64,000 nt of DNA from a virus. The stretch lies in IMG/VR virus record IMGVR_UViG_3300035180_002703, positions 1-64,000 of that record; one strand, 5' to 3'. This document shows, in pieces, positions 4,232 through 61,216 of the stretch. The translations under genes were made by a program, and so were the position numbers. The notes under the pieces were generated by a model that was given only the letters and a program-made list of their open reading frames with translations, was not told the origin of the DNA and did no database searches. Positions within the stretch are counted from its first letter, which is position 1. Every line of letters starts with the position of its first letter.

Positions 4232-4317
4232 TGGCCGAGTAGTTTGGCGTACGGCCCGCCAACGAGCGTACACGGCTCCAATCCGATAGGCAGCGTCCTG
4301 TCGGGCTGGGGCCGTGT
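4232..4317 (+). promoter_or_regulatory. Conserved two-hairpin leader element B, copy 1 (before tail tube gene)
   Basis: Matches 61125..61216 in sequence and pairing with compensatory changes. Confidence 0.7.
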
Positions 4318-4390
4318 TGTATTTTCGGATATGCGCAAGAACCGGTTCTCCGGGTAAAGGCCACGAACAGATGGCCGGGGAGTAATTGAA

Positions 4391-5251
4391 ATGGCAACTG
4401 CGACCACCCAATTTTATAAGAGTGTATTGCTGATCGGTTCGACGCCCATCCCGGCATACCCGGGTGCCACATTGCGGTGCGATAAGAACTGGGCAATCCC
4501 TCCAATCATTGGGAACTACTGGCAATGGAACTATGGGATCGGGTTCAGGCAGCCGGTTGTGGATATCAACCTAGTTGTGCGCGATAAGGCTGGTGAAGCG
4601 CTATCCGCTAGCTTCCTGAACATGTTCACGACCCGATCGGCTGATGCTGCGCATGACACCACGGCGATTACGGGTGGAATCCAGTATTGGGATGGGCGCA
4701 CAGGTTTTACGATGAATGGAGCCAAGGCCGACTCCTTCTCGATATCGTGTGCAAAGGGTGAGGACATCCAGATGTCCGTGCGTTTCGTTGGAACGACGAT
4801 CACCGCGCTCGGTTCTGCGCCTGTGGTGTCTGCTTGGGATAACACGCAGATACTGCGGTTCAAGGGCGTCAATCTGGGCAGCGCGATGACAGACAAGATT
4901 TGGCGGTTTGGTCTGTCGTTTTCCAACAACCACTCGCCAGACATGTCGCTCAACGGTTCCGAATTCCCCGCCGCGCAGAACGCTGGGATGATGACCGTTG
5001 GCTTCAACTGCCGTGCACAGGCGGCAGACGCTGCGGCAATTGAAGCGCTCGATGCATCCGGCCCGTTCGCCCAGACGGTTGTCATCACCGGCAGCACGAA
5101 GACCTGCACGTTTACGCTGAACGGCTTGCTGGCTAACAATCCTTCGGACCGCGTGATCACCGTTCCTCGTAACATGCGCGACTATGTGTGGTCGTGTCTG
5201 GGCGGCGATGGTCAAACGACCGCCCCGCTGACCATTTCTTCAACATTCTAA
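4391..5251 (+). CDS. Putative major tail (tube) protein
   Basis: 286 aa beta-rich ORF directly before chaperone/frameshift and tape measure genes. Confidence 0.7.
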   Translation: MATATTQFYKSVLLIGSTPIPAYPGATLRCDKNWAIPPIIGNYWQWNYGIGFRQPVVDINLVVRDKAGEALSASFLNMFTTRSADAAHDTTAITGGIQYWDGRTGFTMNGAKADSFSISCAKGEDIQMSVRFVGTTITALGSAPVVSAWDNTQILRFKGVNLGSAMTDKIWRFGLSFSNNHSPDMSLNGSEFPAAQNAGMMTVGFNCRAQAADAAAIEALDASGPFAQTVVITGSTKTCTFTLNGLLANNPSDRVITVPRNMRDYVWSCLGGDGQTTAPLTISSTF

Positions 5252-5268
5252 AGATAAGGGGAGAGGGT

Positions 5269-5808
5269 ATGGCAATCCGAGAAGTCAAAGTTGTACTGGA
5301 GGTTATCGAGAACGAGCTTGATGGCAGTGAAACGATCGTCCCAAACGAGCGTGACTTTGCCGCAGGTGAAAGCAAGATATCTCAGCTGGAGAAGCAGCTA
5401 GAGAACGCGACGTCTCGCAAGGACAGGAACAGTATATCGTTGCTCAAGCGACAGATCGCTGCGCTTCGTTCTGCCATTGATACGATGAAACAGCAGAGGT
5501 CGGCGGTCGTCGGGAAGGCGCAGAAGTACACGTACACATTGGTGAAGCCGACGTACGGGCGATGGCTTGAGGCGGAGGGAGCCGCTAAAACGATCCAGGA
5601 TGACGGCAGCGTAGTTGTAGACCAGCTGCGCATCCAGCGGGAGCTTCTGCCAGAGTGCGTCAAGGGGATGTCGCCGGAGCAGGTGGCGGAGCTTTCCCCA
5701 AACATCGCTGTCTACCTTTGGGGCGTTCTGCAGAATGCGATTTGGCCTGATCCGGCGCGCCTCCCTTTCTCGTTGCCGTCATCGCAGACTTCAACGATGG
5801 AAGACTAA
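5269..5808 (+). CDS. Tail assembly chaperone (lambda gpG-like)
   Basis: Between tail tube and tape measure; slippery C CCT TTC at 5763..5769. Confidence 0.75.
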   Translation: MAIREVKVVLEVIENELDGSETIVPNERDFAAGESKISQLEKQLENATSRKDRNSISLLKRQIAALRSAIDTMKQQRSAVVGKAQKYTYTLVKPTYGRWLEAEGAAKTIQDDGSVVVDQLRIQRELLPECVKGMSPEQVAELSPNIAVYLWGVLQNAIWPDPARLPFSLPSSQTSTMED

Positions 5809-5987
5809 GGAACGCTGATCGGCTATTGTACGAGGCCCAGTTGTATATCAACTGGAAGAACACCGGAGCATTGCCGCGTCCGATTTACGATATGGACGTG
5901 ACGACAATGCTCTACCTGTTTGCCATTGAGGCCGAGATGAATCCCGACTTTGATACGAGCGAGCTTGCGGCTAAGAACGTCGGCTGA
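5763..5987 (+). CDS. -1 frameshift extension of the chaperone (gpGT-like)
   Basis: -1 frame from CCCTTTC is open (PFLVAVIADFNDGRLRNAD...LAAKNVG) to TGA 5985..5987, filling the gap to the tape measure gene. Confidence 0.75.
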   Translation, partial: PFLVAVIADFNDGRLRNADRLLYEAQLYINWKNTGALPRPIYDMDVTTMLYLFAIEAEMNPDFDTSELAAKNVG

Positions 5988-6027
5988 AAACGCGTGTGTC
6001 CATGCAGATAGACAGAGGTACACATAG

Positions 6028-9000
6028 ATGGCAGGAAGCTCTGATAACAAGGTAACCCTGTCGATACAGTGGGAGGGCATGGAGAAGGCGCTTCAGGACA
6101 TCTCGCGCTTTCGCCAGGAGCTGGATAGGCTTGGGACGGGCACTGGCGCGTTCCGTCCTAGCTCGGCATCTGCTGGTGCTGGGCCATTGCCCCAAGGAGC
6201 ATCCCCAGGTGCTCCTGCGCCTCCTGACCCGTATTCTGGTTATCGCCCTCCGTCCGCGCCGCAGGGAGCCTCCGGTACGAGCACTGCGATGGTCCCGTTG
6301 GGGTATGCCGGGGCTGGTGGGTGGTGGCAGTCGCAGCAAGCCCCGTCTGGTCCTGCCCCCGGAGAATATGCTCCTGCCGCGCCCGGGGTATATCGACTTG
6401 CTTCTGGTGCTGGGATAGACATTGGCAATGGCGTGACTGCATTTCCCCCTCAGCAGTCGTCTGGCGGAGGAGGGGGTGGAGGCATCGGTACCGTCTCATG
6501 TTCTACGATGACAGTTTCTGCCCAGACGGTTGTCGTGTCTGGTTCTGTTATCAGTGGCGGCGCGGCTGGAGCAGGTGGAACAGGTGGAGGGGGAGGGACA
6601 GGCATAGCGGGCCCTGGAGGGAGCGCGTTCGGATTAGGTGATTTGGCTTCCATGTTCAGCGGAGGCGGATCGACCTTCGGCGGAGGGTCTGGGGTGTTGC
6701 AGAGCTTCCTTAGCAAAGCTGGGTCTATGACCAGTGGCGCTGGCATATTGAGAGCTGCATTGGGGTTCCCTGCTGGAGCGGCGATTTGGGCCGGGTTGGA
6801 ACTAGGTGGGACCCTGGCTCAATACAGCTTGATGGGAAGCCAACCGACTTGGCAGCTCGGGTTGGAACAGCGCACGGCTCAGCAAGCCGGGCAATGGCTG
6901 GACCCATATTCCGCGGCTGCGGACTGGGAAATCAAAAAGTCCCAAGGCGAATATAATGAGAAGGGCGGGGACCCGTTCGCGCAGATATTTGGCGAAGTCC
7001 CCATTTACAAGCAATGGTGGGAAAGTACCTACGGCAGGCCGATCATTGAGGAGGGCAAGAAGAGGGCCGCCGATAAAGAGTACTACCATCTTCTAAAGGT
7101 ACGGCAAGCTTTGGAAGGCGGTCACACACCAATCACAGACTGGAGATTTGATGTAACGCAGCCGATGGTGTCATTAGCATCCATGATGCCATCCACAACC
7201 GGTGCTGCCGCGATGTTCAACAGAGATACCGACGAATGGATCGCAAACAAGATTGGCAGATATGGAAAGGATGGCGAAATCATCAATCCGGGACAGGGGT
7301 TTAGCATTGATGACCTCATGAGAGAACAGAGCTCCATATTGCGAGCATCGTCGGTGCTAGGGAATGACCCGATGTTGCAGCGCATCCTCAACTCGCAGAA
7401 CTGGAGCAAGGAAGTAAAGGGATATGCCTTGGACGCGGGGCAATACTTCGCGAGCACTGGGGATGTGTTCTCGGTAAGGTCTTTGCTGCCCGATCTCGGT
7501 AAGGAGGCATCTGACCAACTGCTTACTACGGCAATGCGTGTCAGGAGCCTTCAGATAACGCAGCAGTACGGACAGGCTGCGGCAACAAGCGCATCGGCTG
7601 GCGTTGAATACGCGAGAGGAACCGGCGCTGGTTACCAAAGCGTAGCAGCCGCCATTGGGAAAATGGCAGACCCATTGAAGCAACAGGCGAATTCGTTGCG
7701 TCAGCAGGCGGCTATCAGGACCAACCCGCTCGAAGCAGCGCAAATGAATGCGCAGGCAGATCAGCTAGAGGCGCAGGCGGCATCGATCCCGCAGCAACAG
7801 ACCAGGACGCTGATCAGTGGAGAAATGACATTGTTCTCCGCCCACCAGAGCATGGCTGAAACGCAGCTGACGAAAGCCATGTATGGGGGCGGTTCCGCGG
7901 AAGATGTTGTGGGAGCATATGGGGGGCTAAGAAAGCAGGCTCAGTCTAGGGCGGCTCAGTTCCTGGCTAACGCCACAAGGCCGGGCATACCTCCGGAAGA
8001 GGCGGAGGAATGGCGGGCCCGGGCAGCGGCAGAGGAATTGCAGGCATCGATCATGATCCCGCGTCAGGCAGGGCAGTTCCAGATCGGGTATGGGACCGCG
8101 CAGTTGGGTGTTCTCGGGGCTCAGGTGCAGTCGGGGATGACAATGGCCCAATTGTTCGGAGCGCCACTGGCTCAGTATCAGGCCGGAATGGGTCAGGTTG
8201 GGCTGATCCAGAAGCAGCAGGAATTCACCAACTGGCAGTTGTCGAACGCTGGCACCTTGGGGCTATCTCAAACAGAGCAGCTTCAATTGCAGCGCGAACT
8301 TGTGGACCTGAAAAGGCAGGAGGTCTCCGTTACCCAGCAGGTCATTCGCAGCTACTATTCCATGAGTACTAGCATTGCCTCGACCGAACGCGGGATTGCA
8401 CAGACGCAGCAGGGGCGAGCGAGCATTACCGGGGTAGGCGGCACAGCAGCGGTCCCGTATTGGGAACAGTCAATGAAGAAGGGCCACGAGGAGATCGATG
8501 CTATCGACAGAGAGATCAAAGCGCGGCTCGACCAAGGTCAGGACCCAAACTCGCCGGAGGTTGTAGCGCTGAAGGCCAAGCGCGAGGTCGCACTTACTAA
8601 TCTCGAACAGACGCGCGGAGGGATCGCTGGTACGCCAATGCCATATGAGTTCCGTATGGCACAGCGCGGAACCGAGTTCGCCTTCAACGTCATGTCGCGG
8701 ACCTATTTGCCGTGGGGTAACCAACGCGGGGCGCTTGTTGGCCTAATGGGATACGCCGGACAAGAACTGCAGACGATCAACGATCTGGAGAGGAAGGCGC
8801 ATCAATCTGGTGAGTGGCAGCCGTGGATGGAGGAGGCTTTCCAGCAGCGGCGCATCGATGTCGGCAACAGGATGGTCGGATACCAGCAGCAATACGAAAG
8901 CGGCTTCATGGACCGGCTGATCTCTTCCACATACAACGCTCCGCAGTCGATGGCTTTCGTGGCAAGCAGGTTTACGCAAATGGAAGCGGCTCCATTTATG

Positions 9001-9375
9001 CAGATGATGGGACCTGCTTGGGGGTTCTCATCGACCGCGACCAGAGATTTCTACCGTGACAGATATCCGAGATTGGCCAATTCGTTGATTGGTCAACTTC
9101 AGAAACCGGAGGGATTTATCTCGACGGGCATGTCCGGGGCTCAACCGCCGACGCTCCTGGGCGACCTGACTGGCAAGGGCGCGCTCGGGTTCTTGGGCGG
9201 AGGTAGTGGCGGGCCGGAACTGACTGTCCATATCGTTGTACATGACACGGCGGGGAAGGAGCTTGGCCGCGAGAGCCAGCGCGTGACGATTGGCGATATG
9301 ACCAATGGGGCGCTGTCACTCACGCTGCCGATGATGGGTATGGGATGGGCCGCTGGAGGTGCGGCTCACCAGTAA
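6028..9375 (+). CDS. Tape measure protein
   Basis: 1115 aa A/Q/G-rich helical ORF after the chaperone pair; N-terminal VTLSIQWEG. Confidence 0.75.
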   Translation: MAGSSDNKVTLSIQWEGMEKALQDISRFRQELDRLGTGTGAFRPSSASAGAGPLPQGASPGAPAPPDPYSGYRPPSAPQGASGTSTAMVPLGYAGAGGWWQSQQAPSGPAPGEYAPAAPGVYRLASGAGIDIGNGVTAFPPQQSSGGGGGGGIGTVSCSTMTVSAQTVVVSGSVISGGAAGAGGTGGGGGTGIAGPGGSAFGLGDLASMFSGGGSTFGGGSGVLQSFLSKAGSMTSGAGILRAALGFPAGAAIWAGLELGGTLAQYSLMGSQPTWQLGLEQRTAQQAGQWLDPYSAAADWEIKKSQGEYNEKGGDPFAQIFGEVPIYKQWWESTYGRPIIEEGKKRAADKEYYHLLKVRQALEGGHTPITDWRFDVTQPMVSLASMMPSTTGAAAMFNRDTDEWIANKIGRYGKDGEIINPGQGFSIDDLMREQSSILRASSVLGNDPMLQRILNSQNWSKEVKGYALDAGQYFASTGDVFSVRSLLPDLGKEASDQLLTTAMRVRSLQITQQYGQAAATSASAGVEYARGTGAGYQSVAAAIGKMADPLKQQANSLRQQAAIRTNPLEAAQMNAQADQLEAQAASIPQQQTRTLISGEMTLFSAHQSMAETQLTKAMYGGGSAEDVVGAYGGLRKQAQSRAAQFLANATRPGIPPEEAEEWRARAAAEELQASIMIPRQAGQFQIGYGTAQLGVLGAQVQSGMTMAQLFGAPLAQYQAGMGQVGLIQKQQEFTNWQLSNAGTLGLSQTEQLQLQRELVDLKRQEVSVTQQVIRSYYSMSTSIASTERGIAQTQQGRASITGVGGTAAVPYWEQSMKKGHEEIDAIDREIKARLDQGQDPNSPEVVALKAKREVALTNLEQTRGGIAGTPMPYEFRMAQRGTEFAFNVMSRTYLPWGNQRGALVGLMGYAGQELQTINDLERKAHQSGEWQPWMEEAFQQRRIDVGNRMVGYQQQYESGFMDRLISSTYNAPQSMAFVASRFTQMEAAPFMQMMGPAWGFSSTATRDFYRDRYPRLANSLIGQLQKPEGFISTGMSGAQPPTLLGDLTGKGALGFLGGGSGGPELTVHIVVHDTAGKELGRESQRVTIGDMTNGALSLTLPMMGMGWAAGGAAHQ

Positions 9376-9448
9376 AAAGTAGGTTGGGCGGCCAACGATG
9401 CCGCCGAGCGTCTGTTGTGGTATGCGCTTGCATGAAAGGAGTATGAAT

Positions 9449-9949
9449 ATGAAGCGCGCCGTGTTGTCTTTGTTTGTCGCATTTGAGATGGTTCTGGCGA
9501 TTGCGTGCCAGGCCGGTCCGATCCCCGCCCCGCATGGCGTTGATGGCATTAGTCTGGATGGCAAAAGTACCATCGCGATTGGCATGGACGTTACTGCTAC
9601 GCAGTATGACTGGGGGGTTGTGGCGAGCGGCAGAGTAAACATCATGGCATGGTTCGGCCCATTCCGTGGGATTGCCCTTGCTCAGGCCGCAACGGTACAT
9701 ACGACTGTGCTCGATGACGGCTCCGTCCAGTCCGTAGTCCGAACTGGAAGGTTCTCGTACACCGATCTGACCAATTGGGTGCCAGGATATTCCAGCGGTA
9801 TCAAGTACTACTGGGCTACCGCAGAAGTGACCGTTGTGGTCGGGAAAAGGAACCTGGCTGGGTTCAACATCTACCGATCCGATACCGGGCAGTTGATCGC
9901 GTCGGTTCCGCTTTCCCCTGTAGTGGCTGGGAACATGGCGATCTACTAG
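9449..9949 (+). CDS. Hypothetical secreted protein (moron-like)
   Basis: RBS AAGGAG; signal-peptide-like MKRAVLSLFVAFEMVLAIACQA. Confidence 0.6.
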   Translation: MKRAVLSLFVAFEMVLAIACQAGPIPAPHGVDGISLDGKSTIAIGMDVTATQYDWGVVASGRVNIMAWFGPFRGIALAQAATVHTTVLDDGSVQSVVRTGRFSYTDLTNWVPGYSSGIKYYWATAEVTVVVGKRNLAGFNIYRSDTGQLIASVPLSPVVAGNMAIY

Positions 9950-9965
9950 GCATTTCTGGCAGAAC

Positions 9966-10007
9966 GAGCGGAGGGCCTACTCGGATTACCGAGAGGCCCT
10001 TTCGTTT
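9966..10007. terminator. Hairpin between convergent genes, likely terminator
   Basis: GAGCGGAGGGCCT-ACTCGG-ATTA-CCGAG-AGGCCCTTTCGTTT. Confidence 0.6.
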
Positions 10008-10264
10008 GCCGACTTCCATTTGTCAATGACATCTTCGATTTCATCAACCGAAAACCACATACTCTCCAATGCGTTGCTGAGTTTGGTGCGAACACAATCA
10101 GCATTCTCTCGATCGGCAATGGTTTCTGGTGAGTTATCCTCTCTCCAATACGCCTCATATTCCATGCGTTCGGCCTCCAGGACGTATTTCTCTAGCTCAC
10201 TACCAATCCACCGGAATTGTGTTACCAGCGTCGTGAGACCGCCGATGTCTTTCTCTGTCATCAT
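9986..10264 (-). CDS. Hypothetical helical protein
   Basis: ORF with GGAGGG RBS, coupled to the upstream minus-strand gene. Confidence 0.6.
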   Translation of the reverse strand: MMTEKDIGGLTTLVTQFRWIGSELEKYVLEAERMEYEAYWREDNSPETIADRENADCVRTKLSNALESMWFSVDEIEDVIDKWKSANERASR

Positions 10265-10530
10265 TTGATCGCCCTCCACAGCTCAGAGACGGCTGTCTGA
10301 ATGTAGTCGTCCGCATTGTACAGGCAGTAGGAGACAAACTTAGGGTCCTGTATCGTTTCCTTCTGCAGCATGTAGTAGGGAACATCCGGAGGCGTGTCGT
10401 TGTTCCATTCTGCGTATTTGCGCACGGCGACTCTGATTTCTTCCAGTCTGAGCATCAACTCACCGATGAACTGAAGCCTCTGCCAGTCCTTCGGATACAC
10501 CGCCTTCTGGCTCACATCTGTGCTATCCAT
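10261..10530 (-). CDS. Hypothetical protein
   Basis: Strong poly-G RBS on the minus strand (C run 10534..10553). Confidence 0.6.
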   Translation of the reverse strand: MDSTDVSQKAVYPKDWQRLQFIGELMLRLEEIRVAVRKYAEWNNDTPPDVPYYMLQKETIQDPKFVSYCLYNADDYIQTAVSELWRAIK

Positions 10531-10553
10531 TCACCCCCCCCCCCTCCCCCTCC

Positions 10554-10784
10554 TTACTGAGCAGGCGACCGCTGCCCACCGAATTCCTCAGCGACTGCGG
10601 AAAGCGTTTGCTCGGCGATGTTCAAGCACATCACTGCGAGATCGTGGCAGGACAGCGTTTCGAGGACAATCATCTCCCTCTCGATAGCCGATAGCAGGCT
10701 CCGTCGAATGCCTGCACTCCGGCAGAGCTCGGCCTGCTTGACCCCCAGCTTATTACGTACGGCTTTGAGCTCGGTTCCTGTCAT
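10554..10784 (-). CDS. XRE-family HTH transcriptional regulator
   Basis: ELKAVRNKLGVKQAELCRSAGIRRSLLSAIER. Confidence 0.85.
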   Translation of the reverse strand: MTGTELKAVRNKLGVKQAELCRSAGIRRSLLSAIEREMIVLETLSCHDLAVMCLNIAEQTLSAVAEEFGGQRSPAQ

Positions 10785-10803
10785 TGAATTCACCCCCTGG
10801 CGT

Positions 10804-10870
10804 ATCATATCGGAATGGTGTCCAGATTGTCAATAGACACCTTGACATTTTTTTCATGGTCTGATACACT
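10804..10870. promoter_or_regulatory. Divergent sigma70 promoters with candidate operator
   Basis: Leftward TTGACA(10833-10828)-18-TATGAT; rightward TTGACA(10842)-17-TACACT with extended TG; inverted GGTGTC/GACACC at 10817/10836. Confidence 0.7.
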
Positions 10871-10902
10871 TCGCCAAACAGTCTCGGCAGGAGGATTTCA
10901 GC

Positions 10903-12420
10903 GTGAACTACCAGAAGGCCCCATTTCCGTGGTTCGGCGGGAAGGCCGACGCCTCGCCTACGGTTTGGGCCGCACTCGGCGACGTTCCTCACTATATAGA
11001 ACCGTTCGCCGGTTCTCTTGCCGTGCTACTGCGCCGCCCGCATCCGGCCAATCGTCCATACTACTCCGAGACCGTAGCCGACATTGACGCGCTGCTGACG
11101 AATTTCTGGCGGTCGGTTCAGCTCAAGCCGCAGGAGACGGCAGAGGCGGCGAGCTATCCGGTGTCGGAGCTAGACAAACACGCTCGTGGGTGTCACCTTC
11201 TGAAATGGCGGCAGAGCGAGGCAACGGCGCGCCTGGCGGGCGATCCTACATTCTGCGATCCGGTAGTTGCCGGGTGGTGGGCGTGGTGCGTGAGTTGCTC
11301 GATAGGCGCATGGGGCATCGGCGGCCCGTGGTGGCCGGATGAAAACGGCATACTGCGCAAGAGAAAGCGCGGGACGGGGGTGCCAGGCGATGGACCGGAG
11401 ACCGTCAACAACGGGCGAGGCGTCAATCATGCGAGCATGCGCGAGCCTGGAGTGCTCGGCAACCTACCTCATCTTGTCTCGAACGGACAGGGCGTCAACC
11501 GCCCGCAGTCGCGAGAACCGGGAGTGCTCGGCAATCGTCCGGAGATCGTCGACAACGGGCGGGGCGTCAATCGCCCGCAATCGCGAGAACCGGGAGTGAA
11601 AGGCGATCTGCCCCATATCAGCAAAACCGGACAGGGCGTCAATCATCCGCACACTCGCGAGCCTGGAGTGCTCGGCAATATCCCCGACTTGAACAAGCTT
11701 GGCGGTGTCAATAGTGCGCAAGCGCGCGAGCCAGGGGTGACAGGCGATCGGGTGTTTCTCACCGACAACGGACAAGGCGTCAATCGCCAGAACATGCGCG
11801 AACTGGGAGTGATTGGCAGCTCCCCTGAGCCGCAGGATGACGTAGAGGCCGCAATCGCCAACGACTACGAAGAGACTGGCGGCTACCATCCGATGACAAT
11901 GCCGGAGGTGCGCCGATGGTTCGCGTTCCTGTCGGCCAGGCTCCGCCACGTCCGCATCATCAACGGTGACTGGTCTGGCGCAGTCAACGGAAGCTATGAG
12001 CGGCTCATGACATCCGGAGCATCGCTCACGCTCCCCGTTCGGCAGGGTAAAGGGCCGTGCGGAGTGTTCCTCGACCCGCCTTATGGGGTAGATGACCGCT
12101 GCGACTATATCTACGGCGACAACGACAGTCTGCAGGTGGCCGCGCGCGTGCGCAAGTGGTGCCTAGAGCATGGTGACGACCCCCGCTATCGGATCGTCTA
12201 CGCTGGGTTCGACCAGGAAGGCGAAGCACTGGTCGCCGCGGGTTGGCGCGAGGTCGAGTGGTTTCGCGGAGGGTTCCTCAAAGGCGGCCTGGGCAACATG
12301 AAGCGGGAAAGGGGTGATGGCCCCGGCCATCAGCAGCATCGCGAGCGTCTCTGGCTATCGCCGCATTGCCTAACAGCATCGGAGCCAAGCGAGCCGGAAC
12401 AGCCAACACTAGAGTTGTAG
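10903..12420 (+). CDS. D12-class (Dam-like) N6-adenine DNA methyltransferase with six internal 24-aa repeats
   Basis: FPWFGGK, YIEPFAGS (motif I), FLDPPY (motif IV); repeats at 11377..11805. Confidence 0.88.
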   Translation: MNYQKAPFPWFGGKADASPTVWAALGDVPHYIEPFAGSLAVLLRRPHPANRPYYSETVADIDALLTNFWRSVQLKPQETAEAASYPVSELDKHARGCHLLKWRQSEATARLAGDPTFCDPVVAGWWAWCVSCSIGAWGIGGPWWPDENGILRKRKRGTGVPGDGPETVNNGRGVNHASMREPGVLGNLPHLVSNGQGVNRPQSREPGVLGNRPEIVDNGRGVNRPQSREPGVKGDLPHISKTGQGVNHPHTREPGVLGNIPDLNKLGGVNSAQAREPGVTGDRVFLTDNGQGVNRQNMRELGVIGSSPEPQDDVEAAIANDYEETGGYHPMTMPEVRRWFAFLSARLRHVRIINGDWSGAVNGSYERLMTSGASLTLPVRQGKGPCGVFLDPPYGVDDRCDYIYGDNDSLQVAARVRKWCLEHGDDPRYRIVYAGFDQEGEALVAAGWREVEWFRGGFLKGGLGNMKRERGDGPGHQQHRERLWLSPHCLTASEPSEPEQPTLEL

Positions 12421-37329: not shown

Positions 37330-37394
37330 TGCCGAAACCGGCTTTCGGGCCGGTCTGCACCGGGCGGCTCCCGGCGCACTGAAGAGGCAAGCCG
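37330..37394 (+). ncRNA. Type II hammerhead ribozyme 1
   Basis: TGCC-GAAA-[CCGGCT TTCG GGCCGG]-TC^-[TGCACCGGG CGGCT CCCGGCGCA]-CTGAAGA-GGCA; predicted cleavage after C37355. Confidence 0.9.
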
Positions 37395-37423
37395 ATAAGT
37401 CGCCACCTTAGGGGGCGCAACGG
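37392..37423 (+). promoter_or_regulatory. Leader motif A copy 5
   Basis: CCG-ATAAGT-CGCC-A-CC(TTAG)GG-GGCG-CAA-CGG directly after hammerhead 1. Confidence 0.8.
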
Positions 37424-42755: not shown

Positions 42756-44127
42756 TCTGAATGATCTGGTTGTGCAGGGAAACATTCGGCGTTTGACGTT
42801 TGCCGAACGGGGCGCGTTCGACATATTATTGGAGCAGTATATCACGCGCGGAGGCTCGCTGCCGTTGGACGTGGACGAATGTTGCGATTTGGCCTCGGCG
42901 CGAACTGAGGAGGATCGGGCGGTAGTGAAGTCGACGCTGTCGGCGGCGTTTCGTGCGACCGATGATGGTTGGCGCAGCACCTGGGCCGATGGTCTCGCGG
43001 AGCGTGTCGGTCGGCGTTCGGACACCTATCGGGAGAATGCCGTGGCGCGTTGGTCGAAGTCGCGGAATGGCGTTGATATCGCTGATAATGCATGCAATAG
43101 CATCGGCGAAAATGCAATTGCAATGCAATTGCATCCGGAGAAATGCAATTGCATCGGCTCGAACGGGATCGGACCGAAAATCGCATCTGATAGTGCTGAT
43201 AATGGCGTTGATATCGCTGATAACTCATGCAATTGCATCGAATCACATGCAATTGGAATGCAATTGCATCAGGCGGAATGCAATTGCAATGCAATAGCAT
43301 CGGCGGGAATGCAATTGCATCAGGCGGAATGCAATTGCAATGCAATAGCATCAGATTGCATGAATTCGCATGGAATCGCGTCGAAAAGCGTCCAAGATGG
43401 CGATGATGACGCTGTTTCTGACGTTCCCCCCCCTTATAACCCCCCTATATACAAAGACTCTATACTAATACAAAGAGTCTTTGACTCTAAGAGACTCTCT
43501 ACCTCTGAAGACTCTATATCTAACAAAGAGTCTTGTAAGACTCTAAAAGACTATAAAGACGAAGAGAGTCTTGGCGTTGAGAAGAGAGATTGTACGAATT
43601 ACCACTCTTGCGCAAATCGCGTCGATTTTGCGCTTTTCGATGTCGAAAACGACGTTGAAGCACAGGGCGATGGCGTTGCGCAACCTGACGTCGCGAACAA
43701 CGCCACGACGCTGGACCCGGGGCACGGTGGTAGTAGTCGCTCGAAAGGATGGACCGCGGAGGAAGTGAAGGAGAAACAGTTGCGTGGCTTCAACAGGTTC
43801 TGGGAACTTCAACCCCGAAAGGTCGATAAGGCTCGGTGCTGGGCATGGTGGCAGCGCAACGTTCGCGAACGCGGCATCGCTCCGGCTATCATCAACGGCT
43901 TCAAGGCATATCTCGCCACGTGCAATCCGGAGGATAACTTCAAGTACGCGAAGCGACCCATAACCTGGCTCCGTGGTAGGTGCTGGGAGGACGAAGGGCT
44001 CGATCCTTCTGCTCTGGAGGCTGTTCTACCTGCTCGCGAACCCATCCGCGATCTCGGATTCGAGTATAGTGCAGAGAATCTCGAACGAACGCTCGGAATC
44101 TCGCTTCCACGCGCGAAAAGCGGCTAA
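42736..44127 (+). CDS. Replication initiator (YdaU/DUF1376-like N-terminus, lambda O-like layout)
   Basis: LTFAERGAFDILL..Y...GSLP; C-term FNRFW..PRKVDK, RPITWLRGRCWEDE; internal DNA repeats; precedes DnaB. Confidence 0.8.
   Translation: MKRITLDLNDLVVQGNIRRLTFAERGAFDILLEQYITRGGSLPLDVDECCDLASARTEEDRAVVKSTLSAAFRATDDGWRSTWADGLAERVGRRSDTYRENAVARWSKSRNGVDIADNACNSIGENAIAMQLHPEKCNCIGSNGIGPKIASDSADNGVDIADNSCNCIESHAIGMQLHQAECNCNAIASAGMQLHQAECNCNAIASDCMNSHGIASKSVQDGDDDAVSDVPPPYNPPIYKDSILIQRVFDSKRLSTSEDSISNKESCKTLKDYKDEESLGVEKRDCTNYHSCANRVDFALFDVENDVEAQGDGVAQPDVANNATTLDPGHGGSSRSKGWTAEEVKEKQLRGFNRFWELQPRKVDKARCWAWWQRNVRERGIAPAIINGFKAYLATCNPEDNFKYAKRPITWLRGRCWEDEGLDPSALEAVLPAREPIRDLGFEYSAENLERTLGISLPRAKSG
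43066..43575. repeat. Probable replication origin inside the initiator gene
   Basis: About eight TGCAATTGCA palindromes plus variants, duplicated AATGGCGTTGATATCGCTGATAA (43066, 43201), then an AT-rich tract with AGACTCT/AGAGTCT repeats. Confidence 0.7.
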
Positions 44128-52705: not shown

Positions 52706-52727
52706 TAAGTTTTTTTAGTCGCGGCTA

Positions 52728-52806: not shown

Positions 52807-52813
52807 CGGAGGA

Positions 52814-53203: not shown

Positions 53204-53249
53204 GCGTGCAAGGGCCGGGCGGGGCGCAAGCTCCGCTCGGCTTGCAGGT

Positions 53250-53289: not shown

Positions 53290-53302
53290 CAGGAGGAATG
53301 AC

Positions 53303-53482
53303 ATGGCCGGTTTCGTTGTCTGCTACATGCCGTCGGCGCAGTCGGCAGGTTCGGCGGAGCAGGTTCGGCGCGTGCAGGTTCGCGCGCAGGATACCCGGGC
53401 GCAGGACCGGGCGCGGGCGGTGCAGCGGGCGCAGGCGCGGCGTGCGAAGCTCTTCGAGCGGGCCGCCGAGTCTGTCGAGTAG
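53303..53482 (+). CDS. Small basic protein (59 aa), absent from the ORF track
   Basis: RBS AGGAGG at normal spacing; MAGFVVCYMPSAQ...RRAKLFERAAESVE. Confidence 0.5.
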   Translation: MAGFVVCYMPSAQSAGSAEQVRRVQVRAQDTRAQDRARAVQRAQARRAKLFERAAESVE

Positions 53483-53689
53483 TTCGGCAGGGCGGGAGGT
53501 TTCGACGGCGCAGGGGCTTGCCGTCGAAGATCGGGCGGGGCGCGCGAACGCTCCGCCCATTCTTTCGCGTGTCGTACATAGGCGGGCGCGTGTCGCAGGT
53601 ACCTGCGGGCGGTTCCGTGCGTCTCCGGGCATCCTGGAGCGGTTGCGGGGCGTTCTAGCGGGCGCGTTCGCGTGCAGTCTGCAGGATAG

Positions 53690-56565
53690 GCGGCGCAGGT
53701 ACCCGGCGGGCGCAGGTACCCGGCGGGCGCAGGTACCCGGCGGCGCAGTCTGTCGGAGATCCGGCGGGCGCAGGTACCCGGGCGGCGCTTACCCGGCGGC
53801 ACTACCCGGCGGCACTACCCGGCGGGCGCAGGTTTCGGCGGGTTCCGTACCCGGGCGGCGCTTACCTGTTCGCGTATCCGTTCACTACCTGCGGGCGTCG
53901 CTTCTACCCGTACCCGTTCTGCTACCCGTTCCGTACCCGTGCGGCGCGTGTCCGTCCATCCTGGAGCGAAAGCGGCGCATTCTGGCAGGTACCCGGCGGC
54001 ACTACCCGGGCGCAGGTACCCGGCGGCGTACCCGTTCACTACCTGCGGGCAGGTACCCGGGCGGCTACCCGGCGGCTACCCGTTCCGTACCTGCGGGCGG
54101 AGCTTCTACCCGGGCGGAGCTTCTACCCGGGCGGGCAGGTACCCGGTGGACGCGTTCGCGCGCGTTCTACCCGTCGACCGGCTACCCGTTCGCGTGCAGG
54201 ATACCCGGGCGGCGCTTACCCGGCCCATAGGCGGCGCTTACCCGGGCGGGCCCATAGGCGGGCGGCTACCTGCTACCTGCTACCCGGGCGGAGCTTCTAC
54301 CCGTTGCCATTCGGCGGCGCTTCTACCCGGCCCATAGGCGGCCCATAGGCGGCGCTTACCTGCTACCCGGGCGGCTACCTGCTCTGCTACCCGGCCCATA
54401 GGCGGCAGGTACCCGGGCGGCAGGTACCCGGGCGGCTTGCCGTACCACGGCGGGCGGGTCCATAGGCGGGCGGGTTCCGCAGGTTCCGTACCCGGCGGCG
54501 CTTGCCGTACCCGTTGCCGTACCTGCTACCCGGGCGGCAGGATAGGCGGGCGGGCCCATAGGCGGGCGGGTTCGGCGGCGTACCTGCTACCTGCTACCTG
54601 CTACCCGTTGCCGTACCCGGCGGCGCTTGCCGTACCTGCTACCCGGGCGGCGCTTCTACCTGTTCGCTCGTACCTGCTACCCGTACCCGTGCGGCAGGTT
54701 CCGTGCTCGTGCAGGTACCCGGGCGGCGCTTACTGCTACCCGTTGCCGTACCCGGCGGCGTGTTCGGCTCGTGCTACCCGTACCCGTTACCCGTGCAGGT
54801 TCGGCGGCAGGTACCTGCTCTGCTACCCGGCTTCTACCCGGCTTCGGCTTCGGCGCGCGGCTTCACCTTCTACCCGGCTTCATGGCGCTTACCTGCTACC
54901 CGTACCCGTGCAGTCTTCTGCTACCCGGCTTCTGCTCGTGCAGGTTCGGCAGGTTCGCGATACCCGGCGGCTTCTACCCGTCGACCGTCTACCTGCTACG
55001 GCGTCTTTGCCGTACCTGCTCTGCTACCCGTACCCGGTGCGGCGGCTTCGTACCCGTGCAGGTTCGCGCGCGGCTTCTACTCGGCGGCTTTCGGCGGCTT
55101 CTACCCGTCGACCGTCTACCTGTTCGGCGGATTTGCCGTACCCGTACCCGTACCCGTACCCGTACCCGTGCAGGTTCGGCGGCGGCTTCTACCCGGCTTC
55201 ACCTTCTACCCGGCTTCTGCTACCCGGCTTCGTACCCGTGCGGCTTCGCGGTATCCTGCGGCTTCTACCCGGCTTCTTCTCGGCTTTGGACGGCTTCGCG
55301 GCGGCTTCTACGGAGCTTACCTGCTACCTGCTTCGCGGCGGCTTCACCTTCGCGGCTTCTCGGAGGATACGGCGGCTTTCTGCTACCCGGTGCGGCTTTC
55401 TGCTACCCGGCTTCACCTTCTCGGCTTCACCTTCTCGGCTTTCTGCTACCCGTGCGGCTTCGGCTTCACCTTCTCGGCGGCTTCTACCCGGCTTCTCGGA
55501 GGATACGGCGCTTACCCGTTACCCGTGCAGGTTCGGCGGCTTCGGCGGTCTTCGGCTTCTACCCGGCTTCTGCTACCCGTGCGGCTTCGCGGGTTCGGCT
55601 TCGGCGGCTTCTGCTACCTGCTTCGCGGCGGCTTCTACCTGCTACGCGGCTTCGCGGCTTCTGCTACCCGGCTTCTACCTGCTACCCGGCTTCTACCTGC
55701 TACGCGGCTTCTACGGCGCTTCTACGGCTTCGGCGGCGCTTACCTGCTACCCGTACCCGGTGGACGCCTTCGCCTTCTCGGCGGCTTCTACGCGGCTTCT
55801 ACTGCTACCCGTGCGGCTTCGCCTTCGGCTTCGGCGGCGGCTTCTGCTACCTGCTACCTGCTCTGCTACCCGGCTTCGGAGTGATACCCGGCTTCGGAGT
55901 GTTTCGGAGGATACGGCGCTTACCTGCTACGCGGCGGCTTCGCGGGTTCGGCTTCTTCGCCTACTCGGCGGCTTCGTACCCGTGCGGCTTCTACCTGCTA
56001 CCCGGCTTCTCGGCTTTCGGCGGCTTCCATGGCGCTTACCTGCTACCTGCTACCTGCTACCTGCTATCTGCTACCTGCTACCTGCTATCTGCTACCTGCT
56101 ACCTGCTACCTGCTACCTGCTATCTGCTACCTGCTACCTGCTACCTGCTACCCGGCTTCTTCTCGGCTTCTCGGCGGCTTCGGAGTGTTTCGGAGTGCTA
56201 CCCGGCTTCGGCGGCTTCGGTCGCAGGTATGGGCGCAAGCATGGGCGCAGGTATGGGCGCGGCTTCTGCTACCTGCTACCCGGCGGCTTTGGACGGCTTC
56301 GCTTGTGCTACCCGTACCCGATACCTGCGCCATACCCGGCGGCTTCGCGGCTTTGGACGGCTTCGGAGTGTTTCGGAGGATATGGCGGCTTCGCGGCTTC
56401 TGCTACCCGGCTTCTACCCGGCTTCTATGCGGCGGCTTCTGCTACCTGCTACCCGGTTTCTATGCGGGTTCGGGTTCGGGTTCGGCTTCTACCCGGCTTC
56501 TGCTACTCGGCGGATTCGGAGTGTTTCGGAGTGTTTCGGAGGATTATCGGCAGGTTCGCGCGAAT
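53690..56565. repeat. 3-kb low-complexity mosaic short-word array upstream of terS
   Basis: Built from CTACCTG, CTACCCG, CGGCTT(C), GCAGGT, CCGTAC; tandem (CTACCTG)n at ~56036..56150. Confidence 0.9.
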
Positions 56566-56580
56566 TTTCGCATACGAGGC

Positions 56581-56610
56581 TTGACAGTTTCGCGGGTTAT
56601 TATCTATAAC
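56581..56610 (+). promoter_or_regulatory. Candidate sigma70 promoter upstream of the terminase genes
   Basis: TTGACA-18-TATAAC. Confidence 0.55.
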
Positions 56611-56886
56611 ACGGCGAATCTGCTGGTACGCCGTGTCCGTGCGCCGTAGCTTATCGGCGCGTATGATATAGGCGGAAGGTCGTACTACTTGCGGTCTTCC
56701 GCCATTCTTTGGGGAGCATAGGGAGTAAGGGAGCATGGGCAGGGAGCGTCGGAATCTCTCGGCGGTCGAATTGGAGCAGGAACGGCGGGAGCGGGAGAGG
56801 GAGCGAAGGGAGCGGGAACGGCGCAGGAGTCGGCGCAGTAAGCGTCGCGGGTGGATGGATTCGGCGCAGTATAGGGAGTATGTCTG

Positions 56887-57723
56887 ATGCCGCGGACTAA
56901 GGGAGCGAAGGCGGGGGGTGACGATTCGAACGTCGCGCCGGTACGGACTACGAAGGGTCCGCCTACTATGCGTGGCGCGCGGGAGATTGGGCAGCTAGTA
57001 ACGGAGGAAGACGCGGCGGCCATTCGTGCGCAAGCGGAGGAGTATAATCGTGCGTCTGAGGAACGAGAGTCGCTCGAAGTTGGAAAGGGGATACTCCCTC
57101 GGCGTCGCAAGGCGATAGTTCCTCGGCGTGCGAGGCCGAAGGGAGAGCTTGCGCCACTTCTTCCGCAGCAGGAGTTATTCGTCAAGGAGTATCTGACGCG
57201 TGCGCATAGAAGCGCGGCGGTTGCGGCGCGGCTTGCGGGGTATGGCAGGGATAAAGACGTCCATAAAGTGATGGGCTATAAGCTAGTCCATCAGCCCAAT
57301 ATCAAGAATGCCATTGCGCGTGCGTTAGAAGCGACTCGGATGGAGGTCGAGGAGGCCATGTCGCGGCTTGGGGCTGCGGCGCGCGGGGTTGGTGCGTATC
57401 TACGCGCGGACGAAACCGGGTATTTGACGTTGGACGTGAAGCAGATGCTCGAAGACGGCAACGGTGATTTGATTGTTGAGATATCGGATAACGGGCGGGG
57501 TCAGACGGTGAAATTTGCGAATCCGCAGGAGGCTCAGAAGTTCATTGCGTCTGTTGGTATGAAAGTTGAGACGGGGTTTGGCGCGAAGAACGTTCAGCCT
57601 ACTGCGCGGGTGGATGTTGACTTGAACGTAGTATTCAAGAGCGTGGCGGACATTTTGACGGAGCGTGCGGGGTTGACGATCGACGCGGAGAAATCGCCCA
57701 ATGAATATACCGACGTCGATTGA
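56887..57723 (+). CDS. terS: Terminase small subunit
   Basis: QQELFVKEYL...AAVAARLAGY...GYKLV..PNIKNAI; overlaps terL. Confidence 0.85.
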   Translation: MPRTKGAKAGGDDSNVAPVRTTKGPPTMRGAREIGQLVTEEDAAAIRAQAEEYNRASEERESLEVGKGILPRRRKAIVPRRARPKGELAPLLPQQELFVKEYLTRAHRSAAVAARLAGYGRDKDVHKVMGYKLVHQPNIKNAIARALEATRMEVEEAMSRLGAAARGVGAYLRADETGYLTLDVKQMLEDGNGDLIVEISDNGRGQTVKFANPQEAQKFIASVGMKVETGFGAKNVQPTARVDVDLNVVFKSVADILTERAGLTIDAEKSPNEYTDVD

Positions 57724-59596
57724 TCCTCTTTCCGCGGAGCGGATACAAGCGGCCATTGATGCGTTGAAGGCGCAGGGCAAGGACCCGACGCTAGAGTTGA
57801 ACACTGCGATGCAGGAGGCGCAGCAGAAGGCCTTTCGAGTATGGCGAGATGGCAGTCCTCCGATGTCGCTTGGTCCGTTTGCGTATCGGGTTGCGGGGTT
57901 CAACCTATCGGCGCGTCAGGAGGCGGCGTTTCGTGGCGCGGGGTTATGGTATCCGCAGGATGTGATATCGCCCGACAGGCGTGTTCAGGAGGTTGTGCTA
58001 GCGTTTGGCAAGGGCAGCGGCAAGGACCGTATCGCGAGCATATTCATTGCCTACATGGCGTACTTGGTGCTTCACTTGGCGGGTGATCCTGCGATCTACT
58101 ATGGTCTTGCGCCAAAGACGCCATTGCACATCCTGAACGTCGCGCCGTCGGAGGACTTGGCGCGGCGTGTTTTCTTTGCCTACCTGAAGCAGGATATCGG
58201 GAGTGATTTGTTTGCGCCGTTCATTACGAATCCGAAGATGCAGATACTGTCGGACGAAATCCGGTTTCCAGATGTTGGGTTGTACTTGTACTCGGCGCAT
58301 TCCAACTCGAAGGGTATGGATGGGTACAACCTATTGGCATGGATCATGGACGAAGCCGATGACTTCCTCGATAACGAGAAGCGGAGCAATGCGGATATCG
58401 TCCACAACATCCTGCGGTCTTCTGCCAACACCCGTTTGCGGAACCGTTGGGTTGGAATGGTTATCAGCTACATGCGGTATGCGGAGGGGTTTGTAGACCG
58501 CGTATACCGTCGTGGCAAGGGCGACCCGACGTTCTTTGTTGACAAGGCGGCGACGTGGGAGGTGCGCGAGGATGTAAGTCGTGACGATCCGGGCATTGCG
58601 TCCGACTACGCGAACGACCCGGCGGATGCGGCGGCGCGGTACGAGTGTAGGCCGCTTCAGATTGCGGATGCGTTCTTCGAGATGCCGGAGAAGATCGACG
58701 CGGCTGTTGATAACGAGCGGTTTCCGTGCATTGACGTGGTGACGAACGAGATCATACGGTCGGAGCGTCCGGACGGATCGGTGATTGAGACGATAGGTGG
58801 GGGTTTACTGAGTTCCCACCCAAAGCCTGGGGCGACATACTTTCTAGCGGGTGATGGCGGGCTTTCGGGCGACTCCTTTGCCATTGCATTGTTCCGTGTT
58901 GACGCGCAGGAGAGGGGCGCGGAGTGGCTATGCCCGGATTGCACGCGGTTCGGGACTGATCAGGAGGTGCTCGGTGTAGCGCACTACGAGATCATGCCGC
59001 CGTATTCTCGTGCGGAGGAGGATGCTTACTGCGGCGTGTGTGGGATGGCGATCACCGAGCGTGAATACGGCACGTTACGATGCGACGGGTGGGCGCACAA
59101 GGTAATGGGCGAGCGCAAGTCGGTGCTTGTGAACGGTCGTCCTGTGACGTTGCCACAGGTGATTGAGGAGGGTCTGTTGGAGTTCAGGCCGGAGCGTGCG
59201 TCTCGGGTTGGGCAGGTCAACCGGCCCGTAAACTTCGCGTCGGTTCAGAATGTGTGCCGAGACATTATCCAGTCGTGCGCTGTGGTACAGGCTCGGTTTG
59301 ACCCCTGGAACACTGCGCAGATGGTGCAGGGGTTGCAGGGCGTTTGCGATGTAGACGTTATTCAGTTCTCACAACCGGAGCAATACCGTCGGGCGCGGGT
59401 TGTCAAGGCGATGTTGTATGCAGGGTTGATTTCTTTGTTGCCGAATGAGAAAAGGGACAAGGAATGGAAGCGTCTACAGCGAAATAAGGAGCGTATCGAT
59501 CACCCCGAGGGAGGGTCCAAGGATTTGTACGATGCGGAGTCTGTTGCCATATGGTTGGCTGCCCGATGGGCATGTGGCGCGCTAGAGGTGGTCTAA
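57701..59596 (+). CDS. terL: Terminase large subunit
   Basis: Walker A GKGSGKD, Walker B WIMDEAD, nuclease AGDGGLSGDS, FDPWN, IDHP.GGSKDL.DA. Confidence 0.92.
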   Translation: MNIPTSIDPLSAERIQAAIDALKAQGKDPTLELNTAMQEAQQKAFRVWRDGSPPMSLGPFAYRVAGFNLSARQEAAFRGAGLWYPQDVISPDRRVQEVVLAFGKGSGKDRIASIFIAYMAYLVLHLAGDPAIYYGLAPKTPLHILNVAPSEDLARRVFFAYLKQDIGSDLFAPFITNPKMQILSDEIRFPDVGLYLYSAHSNSKGMDGYNLLAWIMDEADDFLDNEKRSNADIVHNILRSSANTRLRNRWVGMVISYMRYAEGFVDRVYRRGKGDPTFFVDKAATWEVREDVSRDDPGIASDYANDPADAAARYECRPLQIADAFFEMPEKIDAAVDNERFPCIDVVTNEIIRSERPDGSVIETIGGGLLSSHPKPGATYFLAGDGGLSGDSFAIALFRVDAQERGAEWLCPDCTRFGTDQEVLGVAHYEIMPPYSRAEEDAYCGVCGMAITEREYGTLRCDGWAHKVMGERKSVLVNGRPVTLPQVIEEGLLEFRPERASRVGQVNRPVNFASVQNVCRDIIQSCAVVQARFDPWNTAQMVQGLQGVCDVDVIQFSQPEQYRRARVVKAMLYAGLISLLPNEKRDKEWKRLQRNKERIDHPEGGSKDLYDAESVAIWLAARWACGALEVV

Positions 59597-60222
59597 TGAC
59601 AGAGGAAGAGTTTAGACGGACCTTCGACCCGTTACGCTCCTATGCGCTTCATCTCGCTCGTGCTATGAGTTGTTCGGCTGATGAAGCGGAGGACGTGGCG
59701 CAGGACGCTATGGTAAGGGCATACAATCATCGGGACGAATACGACCCGATGCGGCCCGCCCGTGCCTGGTTTACGGTGATTGTGCGACACATTGTGATCG
59801 ACCATCATCGCAGGGCTGCGCACCGGGAGCACGTTGTGGAGGTTGCGCGTGACGCGTACCCTGTAGTGACGCGCGATCCGTCGTGTGATTTGGCGATACT
59901 GGGCATATTAGCGGATGCCGCGGCGCGTGCGAGTTGTGGTGCAATGGACATAGACGCTGCGATCATGGCGCATGTGCAGGGGTACACGTACAAGGAGATT
60001 GCGCGCGAGCTGTCGATGGAGGGGAGATTTGTAAGCGTTGCCCAGGCAAAGAGATTGGCGCGCGTAGGTCTCGACCGATTGAAATCGGAGCTACTTCGCG
60101 CGGGTAGTGGGGTTCCGAGCAATGACACCAGGTCCCGCAGACGCCGATGCCGTAGCAGAGACATGAGGATTGAGATTGAGAGTGAGGATTGCCAGGGATC
60201 GCTTCCATTTCTGATTGACTAG
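59596..60222 (+). CDS. ECF-like (sigma70 group 4) RNA polymerase sigma factor
   Basis: EAEDVAQDAMVRAY, AWFTVIVRH..IDHHR, GYTYKEIAREL. Confidence 0.88.
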   Translation: MTEEEFRRTFDPLRSYALHLARAMSCSADEAEDVAQDAMVRAYNHRDEYDPMRPARAWFTVIVRHIVIDHHRRAAHREHVVEVARDAYPVVTRDPSCDLAILGILADAAARASCGAMDIDAAIMAHVQGYTYKEIARELSMEGRFVSVAQAKRLARVGLDRLKSELLRAGSGVPSNDTRSRRRRCRSRDMRIEIESEDCQGSLPFLID

Positions 60223-60243
60223 AAGGCTTGGCTGGGATATAAT
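60215..60243 (+). promoter_or_regulatory. sigma70 promoter
   Basis: TTGACT-17-TATAAT. Confidence 0.75.
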
Positions 60244-60353
60244 AAAGGCGCGATCGTGTATCGTGGGAGGGGACCGGGTTGGAGATACGGCGGTCTTGGA
60301 CGAACATGGCGGCCAGTTATTGTGTTGAGAACGTAGATAAGGAGGGGGGAGCT

Positions 60354-61109
60354 ATGCCTGGAGTATTTGTGCCAGAAGGCATTGATGAAGTTCTGAGGTC
60401 CCATAAGAGGTGGTTGAGCGGTAGAGGTGGAGGGGAGCGAGCCAACCTGTCTGGGGTCGATTTGTCGCACATCAGGTTTGGGGATGTGAAGCTGAAGGAC
60501 GCTAACCTGGCAGAGGCCAACCTTGATGAAGCGTGGTTGGTTGGTGCTGATCTGTGTGGTGCCAACCTTTCCGGTGCGAGCATGAAGTGTACGACGTTGA
60601 GCAACGCGTCACTTCGCGGGGCTAATCTGACGAACTCGGATTTGTTTGACGCGGACCTGAGGTCTGCCGATCTAACCGGGGCGAATCTGTCCGGCGCGAT
60701 GTTGAGCCGGACGCAACTGAAGAATGCTATATGCGATAATGTGATTGCTGCTGGGATGTCGCTTGTTTACGTCAAGGGAGCGCCCGAATCGTTGCGCGCA
60801 TGGTCGTCCATCGTGCCAGAGACTGGCTCATTCGAGCTGTGGAAGCGATGCCGCGATGGTGTGATAGTAAGGCTGTTGGTCCCAGAGGATGCGAAGCGAA
60901 CGAACGCGGCAAGACGTGCTGTGCGGGTATCCAAGGCTATTGTTCTGGAAGTAATTGGTGCCGATGAAGCTCGCAGCTTGTATTCGAATGATGTTGTCTA
61001 TCGCGTTGGTGAAACGGTCGAGCCGGAGGACGAATACGAGGACGATTGGACAATGAGCTGTGCGTCGGGCATCTACGGGTACTTGACACGGCTAGAGGCA
61101 GAAGCGTAG
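60354..61109 (+). CDS. Pentapeptide-repeat protein with DUF5758-like domain
   Basis: Paralogue of 31837..32634. Confidence 0.88.
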   Translation: MPGVFVPEGIDEVLRSHKRWLSGRGGGERANLSGVDLSHIRFGDVKLKDANLAEANLDEAWLVGADLCGANLSGASMKCTTLSNASLRGANLTNSDLFDADLRSADLTGANLSGAMLSRTQLKNAICDNVIAAGMSLVYVKGAPESLRAWSSIVPETGSFELWKRCRDGVIVRLLVPEDAKRTNAARRAVRVSKAIVLEVIGADEARSLYSNDVVYRVGETVEPEDEYEDDWTMSCASGIYGYLTRLEAEA

Positions 61110-61124
61110 TACGGCACGGCGATT

Positions 61125-61216
61125 TGGCCGCATGAAGTGGCGTGTGGCCCGCCACTGAGCGAGATGGCTCCAATCCGCCAGGCAGAGTTCCCGGCGGGCT
61201 GGAGCCGTTATCGCTT
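61125..61216 (+). promoter_or_regulatory. Conserved two-hairpin leader element B, copy 2 (before portal)
   Basis: Matches 4232..4317. Confidence 0.7.

Follow-up and report, generated by a model that had tools for sequence, protein, structure and literature searches.

What role is played by a block of some 90 nucleotides (nt) that recurs, in diverged form, just ahead of late genes of a tailed phage? The question is raised by virus record IMGVR_UViG_3300035180_002703 of IMG/VR, which derives from an uncultivated tailed phage with all of its genes on one strand. The record is 74,464 nt long, with a CheckV completeness estimate of 67%, and its first 64,000 nt constitute the window analysed here. 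A preliminary description of the window had pointed to two similar stretches, one before the tail-tube gene and the other before the portal gene, and had proposed that they form a structured RNA, referred to here as element B, acting in cis on late transcription. The evidence reviewed below supports a sense-strand structured cis element repeated ahead of late structural genes, on the grounds of its fold, its strand, and its gene context. Element B is well supported as a selected RNA module with at least three diverged copies, and in kind it most resembles an intercistronic terminator or processing hairpin.

A repeated and folded sense-strand RNA

The first copy (c1) occupies positions 4233-4326 and the second (c2) positions 61126-61220, both on the + strand. 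The letters quoted for the two stretches in the preliminary description are correct at both sites, and the similarity between the copies, which is far beyond chance, is confined to a block of about 90 nt with sharp limits; by blastn against the whole record it is 80.6% identical over 72 nt (E 3e-12). Outside this block, the alignment of the flanks (200 nt on the 5′ side and 100 nt on the 3′ side) falls to approximately 50%, which is the random level. Both reported copies are real, but the record holds three rather than two, as a further copy (c3) is situated on the + strand at genome positions 64237-64332 (64241-64335 when delimited as an element), only 237 nt beyond the end of the window. It was recovered in two ways, by searching the record with a pattern that tolerated mismatches and by a covariance model (CM) built from the copies, which scores c1, c2, and c3 at 103, 104, and 99 bits, respectively. 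By blastn, c3 is 75% identical to c1 over 84 nt (E 1.6e-9) and 75% identical to c2 over 103 nt (E 1.4e-10), and the three copies are roughly equidistant, with pairwise identities of 73-81%; the self-matches returned on the opposite strand reflect the palindromic hairpin.

A CM search of the rest of the genome for copies ahead of late genes, as the preliminary description had suggested, was answered once, by c3. Pattern and CM searches detected no further copies in the record, nor did the window yield any with the CM filters switched off. A fourth copy is hinted at by metagenome contigs from four DNA runs that were placed on the region. Some of their loose ends represent c1 mapping onto c3, but in two runs contigs (at genome 64279) combine a c3-like hairpin-2 part with 30 upstream nt, ending ...GTACCGAGTGTAA, that occur nowhere in the record, and the additional copy may sit in an unassembled part of the genome. 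Another metagenome contig, 8.4 kb long and about 8% diverged from the record, covers both c2 and c3.

From 5′ to 3′, each copy comprises the sequence GGCCG, a variable 6-nt spacer, a first hairpin, a linker, a second and much longer hairpin, and a U-rich tail. Hairpin 1 has 6 base pairs (bp) in c1 and c2, is weaker in c3, and carries a 7-nt loop. In c1 it lies at 4244-4262 (UUGGCG, loop UACGGCC, CGCCAA) and in c2 at 61137-61155 (GUGGCG, loop UGUGGCC, CGCCAC), both on the + strand and both assigned from the consensus fold and its pair counts. The linker is 8-10 nt long in all copies and contains an invariant GAGC. Hairpin 2 consists of a lower stem of 7-9 bp, an internal loop of AA opposite CU (AA opposite GA in c3), a 9-bp upper stem, and a terminal loop of 6-7 nt that begins with CA; its folding energy ranges from -30.5 to -34.8 kcal/mol over the three copies, with the extremes represented by c2 (61165-61207, -30.5 kcal/mol) and by c1 (4270-4317, -34.8 kcal/mol, 6-nt loop), again on the + strand. 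GGCUCCAAUCCG and most of the 3′ strand of the lower stem are invariant across copies, and the positions that vary are confined to the upper stem, where changes are compensated, and to the loops and spacers.

The consensus fold was returned by RNAalifold unaided, and whole-element folding z-scores were -4.2 and -5.3. On the consensus structure, 97% of cells are paired, compared with 39-57% in controls in which the partner was slid, and compensatory changes affecting both sides occur at five pairs; the observed values were reached in 4 of 500 shuffles. The compensatory changes cited in the preliminary description, namely U-A in c1 to G-C in c2 at the base of hairpin 1, and A-U to C-G and U-G to C-G in hairpin 2, are real when counted on this fold. 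The structure is that of a sense-strand RNA, because 12 of its cells are G-U pairs, which would read as A-C mismatches on the other strand, and because the CM scores the + strand at 103 bits vs 27 bits for the - strand.

These same observations bear on whether the repeat might instead operate as DNA, be it a palindromic operator, a promoter recognized by the sigma factor of the phage, or a site of recombination or of a mobile repeat. Two conserved blocks, GGCTCCAATCCG and CGGGCTGG, stand about 15 nt apart, and the copies occupy variable slots where relatives carry other DNA; nevertheless, compensatory changes fall within the supposed spacer, the G-U pairs are sensible only in + strand RNA, and no target-site duplications or terminal repeats were found at c1 or c2, which together leave a DNA-level function quite improbable. 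A role in translation was also considered and rejected in two forms. Read-through of the upstream stop codon, TAG in all three cases, is not indicated, since TAG makes up 47% of stops and is hence uninformative, and the frames beyond it close within 8-9 codons in two copies. A conserved small open reading frame (ORF) was likewise discarded, as an ATG is present in c2 alone and the copies differ by indels.

The preliminary description had further observed that the 5′ GGCCG is complementary to the hairpin-1 loop, allowing an alternative fold or partial pseudoknot. The complementarity stands in c1 (5 bp) and c2 (7 bp), but it is broken by a C-A mismatch in c3. A full H-type pseudoknot is sterically implausible and was rejected, as a loop of zero nt would separate the loop helix from the 3′ strand of hairpin 1, leaving nothing to cross a 5-bp helix, and as the c3 mismatch disrupts it; GGCCG and the loop would form an alternative pairing at most. 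An RNA-only switch, another of the suggestions made initially, fares no better, for the folds of the nascent RNA differ between copies and no alternative fold is conserved over the three.

A terminator-like end and its gene context

Hairpin 2 is followed in every copy by a U-rich stretch. The 12 nt after the hairpin hold 7-8 U in all three copies, where the genome averages 2.5 and its 99th percentile is 6, and the tail scores of 1.9-2.5 fall between the 96th and 99th percentiles of the genome. On the + strand, the tail of c1 spans 4315-4326 (8 U in 12) and that of c2 spans 61208-61220, immediately before the portal ribosome-binding site GGAGG at 61221-61225. A stable GC-rich hairpin, as expected of an intrinsic terminator, precedes the tail in all three copies, and a generic terminator scan flags c1 and c3, through partial stems only. 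Elsewhere in the genome, a terminator-like hairpin at 9965-10005 (region 9965-10010), after the gene at 9398-9949, ends in the tail CTTTCGTTTG, the same as that of c3.

The arrangement of genes around the copies is also suggestive of an element belonging to the end of the upstream unit. In all three cases element B starts 14-17 nt 3′ of the upstream stop codon, and this fixed interval is to be set beside the distance from hairpin 2 to the next start codon, which varies from about 30 nt for the portal gene and 25-38 nt for the gene following c3 to 76 nt for the tail-tube gene. Two of the copies close pentapeptide-repeat genes. Preceding c2 are, in order, terS, terL, a sigma-factor gene (Sigma70_r2; 59551-60222), a sigma-70-type promoter-like site (TTGACT-17-TATAAT, 11/12 match, 60215-60243), and pentapeptide-repeat gene 1, which also encodes a DUF5758 domain and resembles a moron-like insert (60279-61109); the last three are on the + strand. 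After c2 come the portal gene (61219 or 61237 to 63069), a small ORF, a TATAAT site, and a second pentapeptide-repeat and DUF5758 gene that is a paralogue of the first (63427 to genome 64224, past the window end), the portal gene and the paralogue both on the + strand; c3 follows, and then a gene of 244 amino acids (aa) without assigned function (genome 64346-65080). The products of the two pentapeptide-repeat genes are 46% identical to each other, and both genes, each with its promoter-like site in front (60215-61109 and 63400-64224), are set within the block of packaging and head genes, where relatives have neither. The identity of the portal gene given in the preliminary description is borne out by matches to phrog_12 and PF04860, its product being only 26-28% identical to SPO1-group portals. 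The 244-aa gene is succeeded by a 2556-aa gene for a DarB-like methyltransferase/helicase (genome 65503-73173), which is preceded by a highly structured gap of 422 nt (65081-65502).

The surroundings of c1 are of a different kind. Here a methyltransferase gene and a tRNA cluster are followed by a tail-completion gene (Phage_tail_S; 3523-4218), whose TAG stop lies 14 nt before GGCCG, then by c1, the tail-tube gene (4391-5251), and a 1115-aa ORF (6028-9375) that is taken, from its position and size only, as the tape-measure gene. The tail-tube and tail-completion genes are on the + strand, and the former is correctly named, with a score of 29.7 bits against a cut-off of 27 for PF18906 (Phage_tube_2) and a match to phrog_290.

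Morons of lambdoid phages are promoter-gene-terminator cassettes closed by intrinsic terminators, and they offer a close parallel to this layout. In both cases a GC-rich hairpin and then a U-rich tail stand a few nt after a stop codon, and two of the copies of element B stand at the end of accessory genes that bear promoters and are lodged among conserved late genes. Element B differs in that its hairpin is 18-20 bp long with a conserved internal loop, its U-tract is interrupted, and a conserved 45-nt 5′ domain lies ahead of it; moreover, it constitutes a sequence family at three sites, one of them without a moron, and essential genes need read-through past it. The gap from hairpin 2 to the portal start is too short to hold a promoter, so read-through is obligatory and any termination cannot be complete. 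As only some 25-40 nt separate hairpin 2 from the starts of the portal gene and of the gene after c3, the element forms part of the leaders of both.

Taken together, these features, which go beyond the preliminary description in their terminator-like anatomy, conserved U-rich tail, and link to moron-like cassettes, make it possible, and to us tentatively preferable, that element B is a leaky or conditional intrinsic terminator and insulator with a 3′-end hairpin that also serves as a downstream leader. An intrinsic-terminator-type 3′-end element is suggested by the hairpin and U-tail, the CTTTCGTTTG tail match, the fixed stop-codon distance, and the order of promoter, gene, and hairpin, with TTGACT-17-TATAAT or TATAAT preceding the genes closed by c2 and c3 as in a moron. 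The element would end or attenuate transcripts of the upstream unit, which in two of three cases is a pentapeptide-repeat cassette with its own putative host-type promoter, and a protective 3′ hairpin would stay on those transcripts. Late transcription must still pass through, whereupon the structure would become the 5′ leader of the tail-tube gene, the portal gene, and the gene after c3. The 5′ domain and the sequence-invariant lower stem could then provide a recognition surface for a factor that sets read-through, either a phage factor or a modified polymerase; that these parts were kept while the adjacent paralogous genes fell to 46% identity suggests such recognition. The phage sigma factor may govern late transcription through the elements. 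That the element terminates transcription, that it does so conditionally, and that the 5′ domain has this role are inferences.

Several points weigh against this reading. The U-tract is broken up into runs of at most 4 U, and a hairpin of 18-20 bp exceeds those of typical intrinsic terminators. A plain terminator has no need of a conserved 45-nt 5′ domain or of invariant lower-stem sequence. c1 has a tail gene on either side and no promoter-like site was detected before it, so the moron logic does not extend to this copy. Folding of the nascent RNA revealed no antiterminator structure conserved among the three copies, and the covariation is thin, coming from three sequences of one genome.

A more far-reaching proposal is that element B represents a new class of RNA, either a conditional terminator or antitermination signal that is read by the phage sigma factor, another phage factor, or polymerase in such a way that early transcripts, from host-type promoters, stop and late ones pass, or a new self-cleaving or processing RNA that would join the hammerhead cassettes of this genome in a scheme of expression based on RNA processing. 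In the former case the conserved 5′ domain and invariant lower stem would be what is read. We consider this a decidedly unlikely outcome.

Processing, antitermination, and other roles

The length of hairpin 2, which is awkward for a terminator, is what would be expected of a processing or stability site cut by RNase III or another endonuclease, a possibility already raised in the preliminary description. Cleavage of an irregular helix of about 20 bp would leave the upstream mRNA with a 3′ hairpin and provide the downstream cistron with a defined 5′ end. With its extensions, hairpin 2 amounts to 18-24 bp, its two 9-bp halves being separated by a conserved 2x2 internal loop, and the approximately two turns of double-stranded RNA that such enzymes favour are present as a 9+9 bp core reaching 23-24 bp in c1 and c2. 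The GAGC linker can pair with the U-rich tail, lengthening the helix, and the location between cistrons of long same-strand gene arrays is also appropriate. Furthermore, a type II hammerhead ribozyme is located between early genes, just after a stop codon, at window positions 37330-37397 on the + strand (38.7 bits vs a gathering threshold of 37), so that transcript cutting is already part of the expression programme of the phage. The intercistronic RNase III sites of phage T7, such as R1.1, are repeated and mutually similar hairpins between cistrons of polycistronic mRNA; like element B they contain two helical halves around a small internal loop, and a stabilizing 3′ hairpin is expected in both. 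There is no sequence similarity between the two, however, and element B has an additional 5′ hairpin and a U-tail, while its cleavage is only putative. RNase III needs neither conserved sequence nor hairpin 1 nor a U-tail, and we regard processing as a rather unlikely function.

Antitermination was the example put forward originally, with reference to the put sites of phage HK022. A put-like or nut-like cis element, or a protein-binding leader, would equip polymerase or recruit a phage factor for the late gene that follows. The resemblance to put lies in a two-hairpin cis RNA of partly invariant sequence that occurs more than once in phage transcripts. Both hairpins of element B are indeed conserved, some of their unpaired or lower-stem nucleotides are invariant, and they belong to a leader that late genes cannot avoid; the phage, moreover, has a sigma factor of its own and an evident need for read-through. 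The put hairpins, however, abut with about one unpaired nt between them, lie just downstream of early promoters, and lack a U-tail. In element B, 8-10 nt separate the hairpins, the position is between cistrons of the late region rather than promoter-proximal, with c2 about 880 nt from the nearest promoter-like site and none detected near c1, and hairpin 2 has a terminator-like tail of its own. Added to the want of a family match and to its absence from related phages that share the sigma-portal arrangement, this makes antitermination an unlikely explanation, and the put comparison is not favoured.

The short and constant interval between the upstream stop codon and the start of the element, together with the presence of multiple paralogous copies, is also compatible with three sibling small RNAs derived from 3′ untranslated regions, each with a 5′ hairpin, a single-stranded linker acting as seed, and a terminator hairpin with U-tail, an architecture that fits Hfq-type small RNAs. 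The best conserved part, however, is the terminator stem and not the linker; upstream of the copies there is no conserved promoter or processing motif, and target complementarity in the genome is not above chance, so that small RNAs appear improbable. In a separate search for an antisense partner of the invariant 12-mer, genome matches were at chance level and the candidate was dropped.

The hammerhead invites a final comparison, with element B as a new self-cleaving ribozyme and late-region counterpart of the hammerhead cassettes. There are invariant nucleotides in junctions and loops, and the hammerhead of the same genome takes up the same kind of intercistronic position. Yet c1 and c2 matched no ribozyme family (hammerhead, twister, twister-sister, pistol, hatchet, or HDV-like) at E values up to 10, and the fold amounts to two simple hairpins for which tertiary pairing is unsupported, the candidate pseudoknot failing in c3; self-cleavage is accordingly very improbable. 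Threading of the element by hand onto the nested double pseudoknot of hepatitis delta virus (HDV)-like ribozymes also failed, the P2 pairing not being conserved.

Distribution and significance

Beyond the record itself, element B appears to be a motif outside the described families and confined, as far as has been seen, to one phage lineage. A scan of the whole window at Rfam 15 gathering thresholds returned only tRNA and Hammerhead_II, both elsewhere, and permissive scans of c1 and c2 gave a best E of about 1 and no family, disposing of the possibility of identity with a known Rfam family that the preliminary description had left to be checked. One candidate, the DUF2800 RNA (RF02960), matched c2 only, at 15.4 bits vs a gathering threshold of 60.2 (E 1.3), and is treated as chance; c2 shares UGAGC, CAAUCCG, and GG.CUG with positions 71-150 of the model, but the match covers just half of it and c1 has none.

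Searches among genomes were similarly negative. Element B had no blastn match in GenBank phages, and pattern scans of IMG/VR (two) and of GTDB genomes (one) retrieved chance matches in coding regions and one terminator in a metagenome-assembled genome (MAG) of Pirellulales. In the latter, two tandem hairpins lie between convergent genes, after an HMGL-like gene (contig positions 5205-5295), and the second of these matches hairpin 2 of element B almost exactly; the sequence is single copy in the MAG and is an ordinary terminator between convergent genes, a parallel that favours the terminator reading. The CM found no match in 19 portal-related loci and five whole related virus records, and the homologues anticipated in related phages did not materialize there; nor was there a match after such repeat genes in two other phages, a Rhizobium phage and a mycobacteriophage. 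In other phages, homologues of the pentapeptide-repeat genes are early genes next to repressors, which also fits a promoter-bearing cassette closed by a terminator.

Where portal identity is 36-44%, relatives have the sigma-factor and portal genes directly adjoining, and both the repeat gene and the element are missing from that junction. The slot between the tail-completion and tail-tube genes is filled by another small ORF in the nearest relative that could be read, whose tail tube is 48% identical. More generally, the DNA upstream of portal and tail tube in relatives is short or filled by other genes. Since relatives hold other DNA or none at these slots, all three elements can be placed in lineage-specific variable slots. 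The closest relative by portal (71% identity) exists only as a Logan contig.

Two further repeat arrays were encountered in the window. One, at 43066-43370, is iteron-like and built of ATGCAATTGCA-type words (repeat family D5), and is a possible replication origin or binding array. The other is a strand-asymmetric array of about 3 kb at 53700-56600, composed of a few short words including CTACCTG, CCCGTA, and GGCTTC; it lies shortly before terS and overlaps an open frame of 715 aa.

As it stands, element B is a candidate RNA motif with good support but a narrow distribution, its function unproven. If it does act on transcription as proposed, it would supply an extra control point at the RNA level, alongside the hammerhead ribozyme and the second repeated leader motif already in use in this genome. 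Should the module indeed set read-through, it would show how a phage can accept promoter-bearing inserts in its late operon while expression of the portal and tail-tube genes is kept.

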